From Candidatus Saccharimonadales bacterium (lineage in GTDB: Bacteria > Patescibacteriota > Saccharimonadia > Saccharimonadales > SZUA-47): 44,760 bases of DNA. Below the pieces are notes generated by a model, which saw only the letters and a list, made by a program, of their open reading frames with translations, ran no database searches and was not told the DNA's origin. Location of the stretch: the NCBI GenBank assembly GCA_041737385.1, contig JBGSRU010000010.1:1-44760 (forward strand), in the 5' to 3' direction. Position numbers and translations under genes: made by a program. Of the stretch, positions 1 to 7,416 are shown one piece after another. The stretch's first letter is position 1; the number at the start of each line of letters is the position of its first letter.

Positions 1-70
1 ACCCCAACCCCAACCCCAACCCCAACCCCACCCCCAACCCCAACCCCAACCCCAACCCCAACCCCAACCC
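1..70 (+). repeat. (ACCCCA)n hexamer tandem repeat encoding Thr-Pro
   Basis: About 11.5 copies, with one variant unit (CCCCCA at 31-36). Confidence 0.95.
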
Positions 71-285
71 CTGCTCCTGCTCCTGCTACTGCGCCTTGGG
101 GAGCTCCAACACTGACACCACCACCAGCTCCAGCTCCTGCGCCTTGGGGAGCTCCAACACTGACACCACCACCACCAGCTCCAGCTCCTGCGCCTTGGGG
201 AGCTCCAGAATATGGATCTCAAGGAGCTAGCGCAACTGACAGATTCGGTGATGCTCCTTCGCCACCTCCGCCGACCGAAGGCTAA
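1..285 (+). CDS. 3' end of a Pro/Thr-rich protein (partial, starts before window)
   Basis: Frame +1 is open from base 1 to TAA 283-285: (TP)n-APAPATAPWGAPTLTPPPAPAPAPWGAPTLTPPPPAPAPAPWGAPEYGSQGASATDRFGDAPSPPPPTEG*. Not in the ORF track (no start codon in window). Confidence 0.8.
   Translation, partial: TPTPTPTPTPPPTPTPTPTPTPTPAPAPATAPWGAPTLTPPPAPAPAPWGAPTLTPPPPAPAPAPWGAPEYGSQGASATDRFGDAPSPPPPTEG
91..207 (+). repeat. Three coding direct repeats with core GCGCCTTGGGGAGCTCCA (APWGAP)
   Basis: Core starts at 91, 139 and 190; periods 48 and 51 nt are multiples of 3. Confidence 0.9.
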
Positions 286-3037: not shown

Positions 3038-4204
3038 ATGGCGGTGTATAAAGTTCCTCAAGATGTTGAAGCTGAAGATAAATTCTTTGGTCCGTTTTCA
3101 TTTAAGCAGTTCATCTTTTTTGGTGGAGTTGCTGTCTGTGGCTATCTCGTATTCTTAACTGCCTCGAATGGCATATGGCCCCTATCAATTGTGTTTGCCG
3201 TGCCGATGATTGCCTTTGGGTTCCTTGCGTTTCCATGGAGCAAGGAACAGCCAACTGAATTATGGCTGGCGGCTCATGTACGATTTCTTTTCATGAAGCG
3301 AAAACGAATCTGGGACCAAGCGGGCATAAAAGATCTCGTCACCATAACCGCTCCCAAGCGCGAGTTTCATGCACTAACAGATGGACTCAGCCAAGACGAG
3401 GTACGCAACAGATTTAATGCGCTGGCGTCTGTTGTCGATAGTAGGGGGTGGGCGGTAAAAAACCTCGTGAACAACGGGCAAGATAGTGACCGATTGGCAA
3501 CTGCAAGTGCTACAGCTTCAACTTTCTACGAAGAAGCCCTGACGCAAGAAAAAGACGTACTAGACGCTGAAACCAACCCGCTTGCTAGACAGTTTGACGA
3601 GCTTATCGACGAATCAGCTAACAAACAAAAGCAACAAGCACTAAACAGAATTCAGGAAGCTCGTGATGCATCGCGCGGGGGTGGCGTAAACTTGCCGGCC
3701 GTATCACCGCAAAGTTCTGCGTCTATAACACAGGCTACTCCAGCAGTAGACTATTCGTTCTTAGACAAGCAAGAACCTACCGAACCAGGACTGGCAAGCT
3801 TTAAACAACAAAGCGTAGTGCAACCAGGGACGCCTGCCGTGCAAAAGACGGCGCCTATAGGCATGGGTGTGCCAGTCGCGGCTATTAATGAAAACGACGA
3901 GCAGGAACTACTCAAAAAAGTTCATCAACAGCAACAGCTCGATGCAGAAATTAAGCAACATAGTCATCTAAAAACTATCCTTCCGGCCGGAGCTCAACAA
4001 CAGGCACAAGTAGCGAGCAATCATACGGCTACAGATGACGATGCAACTAAAGCAATAGAAAATGCTCAAGCTTCTAGTGCAACCCCTGTTAACCCTGCTA
4101 TACTTGAGCTAGCAGGCAATGACGACCTCAACGTAGAGACTTTAGCGCGTCAAGCGAAAAAAGATATGCCAGATGAGGGCGAAGTAATCATATCGCTTCA
4201 TTAG
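3038..4204 (+). CDS. PrgI-family (VirB3-like) T4SS membrane protein with long low-complexity C-terminus
   Basis: N-terminal YKVPQDVEAEDKFFGPFSFKQF followed by two TM helices is the typical PrgI-family pattern; lies upstream of VirB4. Confidence 0.8.
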   Translation: MAVYKVPQDVEAEDKFFGPFSFKQFIFFGGVAVCGYLVFLTASNGIWPLSIVFAVPMIAFGFLAFPWSKEQPTELWLAAHVRFLFMKRKRIWDQAGIKDLVTITAPKREFHALTDGLSQDEVRNRFNALASVVDSRGWAVKNLVNNGQDSDRLATASATASTFYEEALTQEKDVLDAETNPLARQFDELIDESANKQKQQALNRIQEARDASRGGGVNLPAVSPQSSASITQATPAVDYSFLDKQEPTEPGLASFKQQSVVQPGTPAVQKTAPIGMGVPVAAINENDEQELLKKVHQQQQLDAEIKQHSHLKTILPAGAQQQAQVASNHTATDDDATKAIENAQASSATPVNPAILELAGNDDLNVETLARQAKKDMPDEGEVIISLH

Positions 4205-4224: not shown

Positions 4225-5016
4225 GTGAACCCAAACCAACAAGCTCAACAAGGGATACCGCAGCCAGCTGCTGCAGTACCACCGTTAGCGACGCCGACAA
4301 ATCGGACGAGCACACAGAATACGCTAGAGATTGCTGAGATTCGTGATGGCATCGTTATTATGAACGACGGGAGCTATCGAGCAGTTATCAACTGCCAGAG
4401 CATCAACTTTGATCTCATGAGTCCGCAAGAACGAGAAGCGGTTGAGTTTAGTTACCAAGGGTTTTTGAACTCTTTGTACTTTCCGGTGCAGGCGTTTGTG
4501 CGCAGCCAAAAAGTCGACCTGAGGCCATACATCGAACGACTTGATAAAATTCGCTCAGAACACGACAATATGTTGCTAGCGCTGCTAATGGATGATTATC
4601 TCAACTACATTGAAGATTTAGCTCAGCAAACAAACATCATGGACAAAAAGTTCTACATGGTGATTCCGTTTTTCAAGCAGCTCGATGCGCAGAAAGCCGT
4701 TCAAGCAAGTAAAAGTTTCTTTGCGACAGCGTTTGGCAAAAAAGATCAGCACGTGGTGATTAATGAAGTTGACCTAGAGCAGGCGAAAACCGAACTAAAA
4801 AATCGTATTCAAGCCGTCATGTCAGGGTTGCAACAGTGCGGTGTTAGCTCTGTTCCACTCGACACACAAGAGCTTATTGAGCTGTACTATGATGCATACA
4901 ATCCTGACACCGCAACACGCCAACCACTTAAGAATTTTGAAGCGATGAACGAGCCGGTGATCGAAAAGGGTGTCGGTGAAGCTGCACAACCGCAGCTTGA
5001 AAAGGAACTCGGCTAA
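4225..5016 (+). CDS. Conserved T4SS-associated protein (resembles VirB4/TraC N-terminal region)
   Basis: GTG start; motifs EIRDGIVI, SINFDLMS..E, FLNSLYFPVQ, LDTQELIELYY..YNP; located between prgI and virB4. Confidence 0.7.
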   Translation: MNPNQQAQQGIPQPAAAVPPLATPTNRTSTQNTLEIAEIRDGIVIMNDGSYRAVINCQSINFDLMSPQEREAVEFSYQGFLNSLYFPVQAFVRSQKVDLRPYIERLDKIRSEHDNMLLALLMDDYLNYIEDLAQQTNIMDKKFYMVIPFFKQLDAQKAVQASKSFFATAFGKKDQHVVINEVDLEQAKTELKNRIQAVMSGLQQCGVSSVPLDTQELIELYYDAYNPDTATRQPLKNFEAMNEPVIEKGVGEAAQPQLEKELG

Positions 5017-5018
5017 AA

Positions 5019-5429
5019 ATGAAACACGAAGCTCGAAACACGAAGCTCGAAACAAATTCGAATTCAGAAAAAGCTAAACCCCTTTATGATTTAGAGGAGC
5101 GTACTTTAGAGTTTGCAAAGTCCACAAGAAGCCTGAGTAGGGTTTTAGCTCGAGATATCGCTAACAATGAAGACATTAAGCAGTTAGTGAGATCTTCTGG
5201 ATCTGTTGGTGCAAATTATATTGAAGCAAATGATTCATTGAGCAAGAAAGATTTTTTAATGCGGGTTAAAATAGCTAAAAAAGAAGCCAAAGAAAGTATA
5301 TTTTGGCTAAGACTTTTAAAAGTGACTGACGCACAGGAAGCATCCCGAATTTCTCTCATGAAAGAAGCGGCAGAGATAATGAATATTTTAGGCGCTATTC
5401 AAAGAAAATCAGAAGGAGATTCTAAATGA
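5019..5429 (+). CDS. Four-helix-bundle protein (23S rRNA IVS protein / Avd-like family)
   Basis: YDLEERT..F, QLVRSSGSVGANYIEA, SKKDF...KIAKKEAKESIFWLRLL match the family pattern. Confidence 0.9.
   Translation: MKHEARNTKLETNSNSEKAKPLYDLEERTLEFAKSTRSLSRVLARDIANNEDIKQLVRSSGSVGANYIEANDSLSKKDFLMRVKIAKKEAKESIFWLRLLKVTDAQEASRISLMKEAAEIMNILGAIQRKSEGDSK
5021..5062 (+). repeat. Left arm: 7-nt periodic repeat GAAACAC GAAGCTC GAAACAC GAAGCTC GAAACAA
   Basis: Exact 14-mer duplication at 5021-5034 and 5035-5048; encodes the N-terminus MKHEARNTKLETNS. Confidence 0.9.
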
Positions 5430-5515
5430 CTCCTACGTTTCTAATCTCCAGCTTCTCGTTTGTTTCGTATTTCGAGTTTCGTATTTCGAGTTTTGCCTCC
5501 AAAGGAGGCATATAG
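5426..5515 (+). CDS. Putative 29-aa coupling peptide MTPTFLISSFSFVSYFEFRISSFASKGGI
   Basis: SD AAGGAG 5413-5418; ATG overlaps the upstream TGA (ATGA); its TAG 5513-5515 overlaps the virB4 GTG (TAGTG). Confidence 0.5.
   Translation: MTPTFLISSFSFVSYFEFRISSFASKGGI
5459..5494 (+). repeat. Right arm: inverted copy of the left-arm heptamer repeat
   Basis: TTTGTTTCGTATTTCGAGTTTCGTATTTCGAGTTTT; its reverse complement AAAACTC GAAATAC GAAACTC GAAATAC GAAACAAA closely matches the left arm. Confidence 0.9.
5494..5510 (+). promoter_or_regulatory. Perfect hairpin TGCCTCC-AAA-GGAGGCA containing the virB4 Shine-Dalgarno
   Basis: 7-bp stem; AAGGAGG (5502-5508) ends 6 nt before GTG 5515. Confidence 0.7.
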
Positions 5516-7416
5516 TGGGTTTGTTTAAAAAGAAAAACAACGTCGTTGATCCTATTGCTCTTGCACAGATGCAGGCTGCTCGTGAGCAACAAGAAGTACA
5601 AGTTGCCTTCCAAAAAGGTGTCACTGCATTGCGTGATTTTATCGCACCAGCTAGCCTAGAGTTTGAGTCAAGTATGTTCAAAATCGGCACTCGACTAGCG
5701 AGAACCTATTACGTGTATGGTTACCCTCGCCGTCTGTATACCGGTTGGCTCAGTAGTATGGTGAACCTGGACGAAGTCATGGATATGTCGATTTTTATCT
5801 ACCCAGTTGAGAGCCAGGTTGTCCTCGAAAGTCTTCGTAAAAAAGTAGGACAACTTGAAGCCGGACTCCAAATCGATGCCGAAAAGGGTAAAGTTCGCGA
5901 TCCGGGCAAGCAAGCGGCTATTGTTGACGCTGAGGAGCTACGCGACAAACTGCAGGTTGGCGAAGAGCGATTCTTCCGTTTTGGGCTATATTTTACTCTC
6001 TACGCTAACTCTATGGAAGAAATGGAATATGTAACGCACAAAGTTGAAAGTGTACTGGCTCAACAGCTGGTCTACAGTAAGCCAGCCAGCGCCCAGCAGG
6101 AGCAAGGACTCAACTCAACGCTTCCGCAGTTTACTGATCAACTGCAGATTCGTCGCAACATGAACACCGGAGCAATTAGTACCAGTTTCCCGTTCACTAG
6201 TGCAGACCTTAGCCAAGAAAACGGCATTTTGTACGGCATTAATATGCACAACTCTGGGCTGGTTATATTTGATCGGTTCTCTCTAGAAAACGGCAACAGT
6301 GTCGTGTTTGCAAAGTCTGGTGCGGGTAAAAGCTTTACGGTGAAACTAGAAGCGCTCAGAAGTATGATGTTTGGCACTGAAGTATTTATTATTGATCCGG
6401 AAAACGAATACGAAAAGATGTGTGACGCAGTTGGTGGCGCCTATATTCGGCTCAGCCTCAGCAGTAAAACCCGCATAAATCCGTTTGACCTACCGAAGGT
6501 TTCTGAACAAGAAGAGGCCGACAATGCGCTTCGTAGCAACCTTATCACCCTTCACGGATTGCTCCGACTAATGATGGGCGGGGCGCAGGCACAAGCAGCT
6601 GGCAGCACAACGCCGGCGATGAACCCAGTCGAAGAAGCCGACCTCGACGCGGCACTTATCGAAACGTATGCAAGAGCAGGTATCACCAACGATCCACTGA
6701 CGCATAATTCACCGCCGCCAACGATTGCGAGCCTATATGACACATTGCTACACATGGGCGGAACTGGCCCACAACTCGCACAGCGTCTACGAAAATACAC
6801 GACTGGAACTTTTGCTGGTATATTCAGCCAACCAAGCAACGTGGAGATCAATAATCCACTTGTGGTCTTCAACATTCGTGACCTAGAAGACGAGCTTCGA
6901 CCAGTAGCAATGTATATCGTGCTTAATTATATCTGGAATAAAACCAAAGCTGACCAACGCAAGCGAATACTTATCGTCGATGAAGCTTGGCAATTAATGA
7001 AGTACGAAGACAGCGCGAGCTTCTTGTTCAGTCTCGCAAAACGAGCAAGGAAGTATAACTTAGGCATCACCACAATCACACAAGATGTGGAAGACTTCAT
7101 GGGCTCTCGTATGGGACGAGCAATAGTCGCAAACGCGAGTATGCAAATACTACTAAAGCAGTCACCGTCTGCGGTTGACGTGCTCGCGGGAGTCTTTCGG
7201 CTTACCAGCGAGGAGAAGAAGCGGTTAAGCCAGTTCCCAGTTGGACAGGGTTTGTTTTTTGCAGGACAGAACCATGTCCATATTCAGATTGCTGCGAGTC
7301 CAACCGAAACACGTCTAATCACTACCAATCCAAACGATGTACAACAACCAAAACAAGAACAGCAAGTAGACTTAAGTCAAACAGGGTACAATAACACTGT
7401 GGAATTAAACCAATAG
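5515..7416 (+). CDS. virB4: VirB4-like T4SS ATPase
   Basis: Walker A AKSGAGKS, IIDPENEY, INPFD, Walker B ILIVDEAW, KRARKYNLG..ITQDV motifs. Confidence 0.92.
   Translation: MGLFKKKNNVVDPIALAQMQAAREQQEVQVAFQKGVTALRDFIAPASLEFESSMFKIGTRLARTYYVYGYPRRLYTGWLSSMVNLDEVMDMSIFIYPVESQVVLESLRKKVGQLEAGLQIDAEKGKVRDPGKQAAIVDAEELRDKLQVGEERFFRFGLYFTLYANSMEEMEYVTHKVESVLAQQLVYSKPASAQQEQGLNSTLPQFTDQLQIRRNMNTGAISTSFPFTSADLSQENGILYGINMHNSGLVIFDRFSLENGNSVVFAKSGAGKSFTVKLEALRSMMFGTEVFIIDPENEYEKMCDAVGGAYIRLSLSSKTRINPFDLPKVSEQEEADNALRSNLITLHGLLRLMMGGAQAQAAGSTTPAMNPVEEADLDAALIETYARAGITNDPLTHNSPPPTIASLYDTLLHMGGTGPQLAQRLRKYTTGTFAGIFSQPSNVEINNPLVVFNIRDLEDELRPVAMYIVLNYIWNKTKADQRKRILIVDEAWQLMKYEDSASFLFSLAKRARKYNLGITTITQDVEDFMGSRMGRAIVANASMQILLKQSPSAVDVLAGVFRLTSEEKKRLSQFPVGQGLFFAGQNHVHIQIAASPTETRLITTNPNDVQQPKQEQQVDLSQTGYNNTVELNQ

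Follow-up and report, generated by a model that had tools for sequence, protein, structure and literature searches.

How does an operon cope with a hairpin-forming insertion placed exactly where the stop of one gene meets the start of the next? The question is raised by a stretch of 44,760 nucleotides (the window, contig C11 in our labels) from a Candidatus Saccharimonadales bacterium (assembly GCA_041737385.1, contig JBGSRU010000010.1; genome of 1.16 Mb, 97% complete), in which a cassette of the rRNA intervening sequence (IVS) type lies in a type IV secretion system (T4SS) operon, between virB4 and the 263-aa gene directly upstream of it, which we call p263. The cassette is a four-helix-bundle gene within a hairpin of 7/14-nt repeat arms. 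Judging from the comparison of related loci, it is probable that the cassette at the p263/virB4 stop/start junction keeps a relay of ribosomes into virB4. This reading is supported by chains of overlapping reading frames in 7/7 four-helix cassettes and 21/21 inserts without a four-helix gene (gene-less inserts) at this junction, against 8/97 cassettes elsewhere, and by a motif like a Shine-Dalgarno (SD) sequence in the expected place in 7/7 cassettes against 8/102 elsewhere.

A chain of reading frames from p263 to virB4

The features of the junction in the window are as follows (ORF, open reading frame).

4225-5016, forward strand: p263, 263 aa, probably TrsD-like, with its stop TAA at 5014-5016 (ORF list)
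5019-5429, forward strand: four-helix-bundle gene (23S rRNA IVS protein/S23p/Avd-like family), 136 aa (PF05635)
5021-5056, forward strand: left arm, 14-nt units in tandem (sub-period 7 nt), at the N-terminus of the four-helix gene (Tandem Repeats Finder; inverted repeats I1-I5)
5413-5418, forward strand: SD of the short ORF, AAGGAG, 7 nt 5' of its ATG and within the last four-helix codons
5426-5515, forward strand: short (relay) ORF, 29 codons, with its stop TAG at 5513-5515 (ORF list)
5459-5497, forward strand: right arm, complement of the left arm, with tandem 14-nt units at 5462-5493
5494-5510, forward strand: perfect 7-bp hairpin TGCCTCC-AAA-GGAGGCA, enclosing the virB4 SD GGAGG at 5504-5508
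5515-7416, forward strand: virB4, complete, 633 aa, GTG start (P-loop_TraG, AAA_10, and DUF87 matches)

The four-helix gene starts 2 nt past the p263 stop. Its own stop (TGA, 5427-5429) is overlapped, as ATGA, by the ATG of the short ORF at 5426, and the TAG of the short ORF in turn shares its G with the GTG of virB4 at 5515-5517 (TAGTG). An earlier note on this DNA, made from the letters alone, had described both overlaps and the open frame across the right arm, and all of them are present in the sequence. It had also described the left arm as translated, which is borne out by the position of 5021-5056 inside the four-helix ORF (5019-5429).

The GTG at 5515 is the real start of virB4, because VirB4 of 37 of the 40 relatives searched aligns from residues 1-11 (the best matches listed are 77-87% identical). 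The same alignments dispose of the idea that the cassette splits virB4, which had come from a TraC_F_IV match in p263; a split is also ruled out by the relatives, all of which have p263 as a gene of its own. The match itself is weak (E 0.0016 in the profile search, below the cut-off). In relatives, homologues of p263 (65-77% identical) lie directly 5' of virB4. TrsD is described in a survey of Patescibacteria T4SSs as remotely like the VirB4 N-terminus and usually associated with virB4 (PMC12102498), and, judging from gene order and this description, p263 is probably TrsD. Transposon data cited in the same survey indicate that genes of the trsD/virB4 type are essential for epibiotic growth (PMC12102498).

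In empty junctions, the stop of p263 and the start of virB4 mostly overlap. With the virB4 start projected from the alignment, ≤18 nt separate the two in 24 of the 29 relatives' loci that show both genes, and ≤2 nt in 21 of these; TAATG and TAGTG overlaps are common in the empty junctions, with an SD of the GGGAG or AGGAG type in the last p263 codons. The last codons of p263 in the window likewise contain a native SD-like AAGGAA (5002-5007). The remaining five of the 29 loci hold an insert exactly at the junction (the window's genome, G035, G007, G019, and G034). Among 56 empty metagenome loci, p263 and virB4 overlap in 37 and lie within 5 nt of each other in 50.

The chain is conserved at this junction and not at other sites

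Relatives of the four-helix protein were searched across 401 genomes of the order and found in 60 of them. The five closest (G155, G035, G092, G050, and G098) all sit at the p263-virB4 junction, and 24 further fetched loci lie elsewhere. Complete junction cassettes number seven, in subfamily A (G000, which is the window's genome, G155, G035, G050, and G098) and subfamily B (G019 and G007); G019, which supplies one of the seven, and G006, the empty-site comparison in its genus, are unpublished genomes, for which the depositors' permission is needed to publish. The cassette of G092 (locus L036) was left out of the counts because of a scaffold gap downstream of it; at its upstream junction there is an ATGA overlap. 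Past the stop of that cassette, L036:449-700 holds another stretch that resembles an arm and an ORF of 114 codons, which run into the scaffold gap and may represent tandem cassettes or an assembly problem. Controls from across phyla came from a scan of one genome per species, which gave 567 four-helix relatives, the best 80 of which were examined; 75 of these 80 loci had enough flank, and two were copies at the junction itself, leaving 73.

We call a chain strict when a start overlaps the four-helix stop (-4/-1) and the stop of the ORF thus begun overlaps the start of a long ORF. Strict chains are found in all seven complete junction cassettes, compared with 2/24 cassettes at other sites in the same order and 6/73 across phyla (8/97 combined). 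When gaps of ≤3 nt are allowed, the counts become 7/7, 4/24, and 13/73, respectively. The enrichment at the junction is significant (Fisher p 3e-7 strict, 1.6e-5 lenient), although these values are overstated since the relatives are not independent. The earlier note had suggested looking for start/stop overlaps in other cassettes; they are the rule at this junction and rare at other sites.

The positional equivalents of the short ORF have 21-39 codons in the seven junction cassettes. The spacers measure 85, 112, 79, 85, 79, 61, and 97 nt, and all seven are 1 mod 3, the phase demanded by both overlaps, though the arms are built of 7-nt units. Every junction cassette has an SD-like motif ahead of its short ORF (AAGGAG in four; 4-8 nt upstream of the start in the sequences printed), compared with 8 of 102 cassettes elsewhere. 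At the upstream end, the four-helix start overlaps or abuts the preceding stop, with the left arm translated, in 7/7 junction cassettes (six strictly) against 12/99 controls (nine strictly). Visual inspection of cross-phylum cassettes placed the four-helix ATG mostly past the left arm, which argues that the junction cassettes moved their start to the left end.

The chain was then looked for in new material: 80 metagenome loci were fetched with the p263 profile after the cassette analysis, and 75 of them show both p263 and virB4. The gap is ≤40 nt in 56 of these and 79-244 nt in 19, so that about a quarter of the junctions hold an insert. None of the 19 larger inserts has a four-helix gene; on inspection, most consist of a run of heptamer repeats and a second run complementary to it. 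In all 19, a single ORF of 27-81 codons leads from the p263 stop (mostly by ATGA) to the virB4 start, which it overlaps by -1 in 12, -4 in three, and -8 in two, and abuts in the remaining two. Stops are absent from the relay frame but interrupt the +1 frame in 19/19 inserts and the +2 frame in 18/19; openness is therefore strong evidence here, where the other frames are closed. As for the five loci without a virB4 match, L180 and L192 contain complete inserts with the same overlapping relay (read by eye), L176 contains a subfamily-B four-helix cassette that is cut by the contig end and has ATGA at its upstream junction, and two were too short to judge. The relay prediction thus held in 21/21 new complete gene-less inserts, and altogether the junction is occupied in seven genomes and 21 metagenome contigs and empty in the rest. 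One gene-less insert (L201) combines arm motifs of two different types of four-helix cassette, which suggests that gene-less inserts are cassettes that lost their gene.

With both sets at hand, it is scarcely credible that the short ORF is a chance product, arising simply because a low-complexity arm that codes on one strand has a reverse complement without stops. Arms are indeed stop-poor in any frame, and open frames of 29 codons are by themselves not rare, but chance is contradicted by the kept junction overlaps, the common phase of the 7/7 spacers, the SD motif (7/7 against 8/102), and the gene-less inserts, 18/19 of which are open in the relay frame alone. The signal beyond chance comes from the phase and the two overlapping junctions, not from the open frame by itself. 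A functional micropeptide, for which the SD, the ATG, and the frame kept open might speak, is also very improbable: lengths vary from 21 to 39 codons in the cassettes and from 27 to 81 in the gene-less inserts, and the peptide sequences are set by the repeat arms and are unlike each other. The short-ORF peptide is probably meaningless in itself.

A different kind of element occupies the junction in G034. This insert is a 167-nt miniature inverted-repeat transposable element with 12-nt perfect terminal inverted repeats; its genome, of 0.8 Mb, holds at least 40 copies. One 97-codon ORF spans the insert, but this counts for little in favor of the relay, because each of the 11 copies examined has two of its three frames open.

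In a quick tree, from which seven rows with stops were dropped, subfamily B (G019 and G007) is far from subfamily A (support 100), and the junction cassettes of subfamily A group with four rows from other sites (support 91). The separation of the two subfamilies implies at least two independent acquisitions at the junction. Taken together, the comparison strongly supports the proposal of the earlier note that the cassette preserves a relay through the operon. On this evidence, translation would pass along the chain, and virB4 output would depend on it.

RNA structure and the proposed passage of ribosomes

The earlier note had placed the virB4 SD in a perfect hairpin, and we find it there: TGCCTCC (5494-5500) and GGAGGCA (5504-5510) are separated by AAA, and the enclosed GGAGG lies 6 nt before the GTG. 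The 51 nt before virB4, which comprise this hairpin and a second small one, fold at -15.5 kcal/mol (z -3.2), and 2 of 300 shuffles are as low. The note had further observed that the SD region of the short ORF can itself pair. Pairing of GGAGATT with AATCTCC (5443-5449) is possible in the window (-11.5 kcal/mol, z -2.4), but among the seven cassettes it is seen in this genome only, the other six having z -0.9 to +0.6.

Local structure with z < -3 over the virB4 SD and/or start is found in 4/7 four-helix cassettes (G000, G050, G019, and G007) and in 0/19 empty sites of relatives; in the gene-less inserts the count is 1/19, obtained with a different segment (32 nt upstream plus 6). When perfect hairpins are counted directly (stem ≥5 bp, loop 3-6 nt, ≤34 nt upstream of the virB4 start), they are present in 5/7 cassettes and 9/19 gene-less inserts (14/26 inserts), compared with 3/56 empty metagenome sites. 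The stems of most gene-less inserts differ around a constant CC-GGA-GG core, and in the sequences inspected CTAATG or CTGATG usually comes next. Whole-insert folds of the gene-less inserts have z < -3 against shuffles in 6/19; because folds there seldom beat shuffles, the claim of a hairpin in this group rests on the direct count. The hairpin over the virB4 SD is thus a frequent feature linked to the inserts, real but not universal.

Two cassettes of Planctomycetota (L070 and L091) have 3' ends that are AGGAG-loop-CTCCT hairpins just before a GTG start, with differing loops; SD-masking hairpins at cassette ends therefore also occur outside Saccharibacteria.

From this anatomy, the cassette appears shaped so that ribosomes would never leave the message. 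After terminating on p263, ribosomes would re-initiate 2 nt further on, at the four-helix gene, reading the left arm as its N-terminus. At the four-helix TGA, they would restart on the overlapping ATG of the short ORF, aided by the AAGGAG 7 nt upstream, cross the right arm by way of the short ORF, and open the hairpin around the virB4 SD. They would stop at the TAG overlapping the GTG, where virB4 would be started either by the same ribosome re-initiating or by a new one on the unmasked GGAGG, so that the chain would serve both the unfolding and the re-initiation mechanisms of coupling. Both mechanisms have been described, with MS2 coat/lysis and rpmI-rplT as examples (PMC12548453), and the likeness extends to a downstream SD or start masked in a hairpin that is opened by the upstream ribosome and to a stop/start overlap, while the upstream "gene" in the window is, unlike in those cases, a spacer ORF created in inserted DNA.

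The arms themselves can pair over a long range. When the whole insert of the window is folded at minimum energy, they are joined by 50 base pairs, and the corresponding folds of 7/7 junction cassettes have 33-65 such pairs. This is what would be expected if RNase III cut the paired arms, freed the four-helix mRNA, and left separate p263 and virB4 messages, with virB4 using its own GGAGG and the short ORF being a by-product. The architecture matches that of ORF-bearing rRNA IVSs (a PF05635 gene, complementary arms, and heptamers; PMC4990558), the genome has an RNase III gene (rnc), and the virB4 SD is strong. We nevertheless consider this account unlikely, since it leaves unexplained the kept phase, the overlaps, and the short-ORF SD, all of which are constant here (7/7 and 21/21) and rare elsewhere, and since translation across both arms would itself block the stem. 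Processing and the relay may also coexist, with translation guarding the message from cleavage.

It is more doubtful still that selection acts on continuous ribosome cover, against polarity or decay of an untranslated stretch, rather than on delivery to virB4. Where an operon has untranslated gaps, Rho termination or decay can follow (PMC12548453), and the chain leaves no such gap. This explanation is weakened, however, by the failure to find a Rho RNA-binding domain in the 97%-complete genome and by the size of the gap to be covered (merely 61-112 nt), and the exact -1/-4 overlaps together with the SD hairpins point to coupling at the start codon, not to mere cover.

Several points weigh against the relay. 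The window's own p263/four-helix junction is a 2-nt gap, not an overlap. Strong local hairpins are absent in three of the seven cassettes (G155, G035, and G098), and few of the short 3' hairpins of the gene-less inserts are more stable than dinucleotide shuffles (z < -2 in 2/19). The strong GGAGG of virB4 could allow independent initiation when the hairpin breathes, and three successive re-initiations could be inefficient. Stops are scarce in every frame of the arms, so that an open frame in a cassette says little by itself, and the seven cassettes perhaps go back to only two insertions, in which case the counts overstate their independence.

Beyond the relay, one may hypothesize, as did the earlier note, that arm pairing and ribosome transit compete as a switch of VirB4 synthesis. 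A broader form of this idea, to which we would give little credence, takes the heptamer hairpin, with or without a gene, as a pan-bacterial mobile module in which a pentamer of the Avd-like protein would bind its own arms, and such binding, or RNase III, opposed by ribosome transit would act as an autoregulated gate on VirB4. If such a gate were true, control would reach the secretion machine that Saccharibacteria need for epibiotic life, and the same hairpin design would also explain the tolerance of both rRNA IVSs and operon cassettes.

Kinship, precedents, and significance of the cassette

The four-helix protein matches PF05635 with E 3e-11 (43.9 bits; cut-off 33.8), and a profile of its subfamily matches PDB 2RLD at E 4e-18. 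The closest known element is the ORF-bearing IVS of 23S rRNA, as in Coxiella burnetii, where an S23p gene, terminal inverted repeats, tandem heptamers, and excision by RNase III are described (PMC4990558). The window cassette is alike in its PF05635 gene, its size of ~0.4-0.55 kb, and its complementary termini that form a long stem (77-79% complementarity between left and right arm and 50 long-range pairs). As in the Coxiella IVS (PMC4990558), tandem heptamers stand beside the ORF start; here their period is 7/14 (5021-5054 and 5462-5493), and the left array (5021-5054) has period 14, 2.4 copies, and 100% matches in Tandem Repeats Finder. Unlike 23S IVSs, it lies in a protein-coding operon (p263/virB4) instead of helix 25 or 45 of 23S rRNA, both of its arms are translated, and its gene has start/stop overlaps with its neighbors.

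Avd of diversity-generating retroelements belongs to a related family of four-helix-bundle folds (PMC10053308). An identity or role as such an Avd is excluded, because the 97%-complete genome has no reverse transcriptase (RVT_1) match and the neighbors are T4SS genes; a pair of template and variable repeats is also lacking. A second PF05635 gene in the same genome (contig C27, L001:1477-1839, reverse strand, 120 aa, E 7e-33) has genes for a sugar transferase and a glycosyltransferase as neighbors and overlaps the next gene downstream as ATGA; it was rejected as a cassette of the same kind, being without repeat arms. No Rfam family was found in the window or around this second gene. A search of the cassette for an internal promoter or terminator gave no signal above shuffles, and the hairpin is not terminator-like.

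The best 80 of the 567 four-helix relatives come from Planctomycetota, Verrucomicrobiota, Thermodesulfobacteriota, Pseudomonadota, Bacteroidota, Chloroflexota, several phyla of the candidate phyla radiation, and others. Their elements, of the same four-helix subfamily, are ~420-530 nt long, with near-identical heptamer arms, and lie between unrelated genes; this distribution across phyla implies horizontal spread. A target-site duplication (TA) was looked for in these 80 cassettes, and none was consistent. Elsewhere in Saccharibacteria, another contig has a four-helix cassette (L119:744-1121) directly 5' of a PrgI-like gene of a T4SS operon, and other junctions of this operon are thus also colonized. 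In the window, the PrgI-family gene (ORF list and domain search) is as follows.

3038-4204: PrgI-family gene

The beginning of the window (1-207) holds repeats of the hexamer ACCCCA and tandem repeats of 48-51 nt, upstream of an 849-aa ORF (368-2917).

The relay principle is already known from mycobacterial interspersed repetitive units (MIRUs), from integron ORF-11, and from coupling by unfolding (PMC12548453; PMC8876359). The MIRU of mycobacteria is described in a review as mobile, with a short ORF coupled at -4 to the gene that it enters (PMC12548453). The junction inserts resemble it as small mobile repeats at a start codon within an operon, with a short ORF start/stop-coupled to the downstream gene and little harm done. 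The downstream link is an overlap with virB4 in 7/7 cassettes and, among the gene-less inserts, an overlap in 17 and an abutment in two of the 19 measured, and an overlap in the two read by eye. Unlike the MIRU, they are heptamer-repeat hairpins that may carry a gene, their relay can have two steps (the four-helix gene and the short ORF), and an SD hairpin is often found in their 3' end; the likeness is one of description, and kinship to the MIRU sequence is not expected. In integrons, ORF-11, ORF-17, and ORF-18 of attI1 and the short ORFs of attC have their own SD and hand ribosomes to the next cassette gene (PMC8876359). These, too, are indifferent in sequence and keep a stem-loop from blocking translation, but their place is in the recombination sites of a different element and system, while the relay ORF of the window lies across an arm of an IVS-type hairpin. 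What is new is the carrier, an rRNA-IVS-type cassette, together with its gene-less relatives, at a T4SS junction. Our literature searches found nothing on cassettes in operons, on the relay, or on Saccharibacteria T4SS in this respect; Tables S3 and S4 of PMC12102498 may list small genes between trsD and virB4.

As comparative evidence for the maintenance of translational coupling by selection, the junction is unusually clean. Such short ORFs call for caution from annotators, as they may be functional as conduits though their peptides are unconserved, and they form, with the SD hairpins, a natural set of spacers on which models of coupling by re-initiation or unfolding could be tested. The finding draws a functional link from IVS-type elements to MIRUs and to the relay ORFs of integrons. 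It indicates that intervening sequences of the rRNA type also occur in mRNAs, and how they may be rendered harmless there: dozens of independent-looking insertions, unrelated in sequence, length, and cargo, keep one frame open between genes of a secretion system that is reportedly essential.

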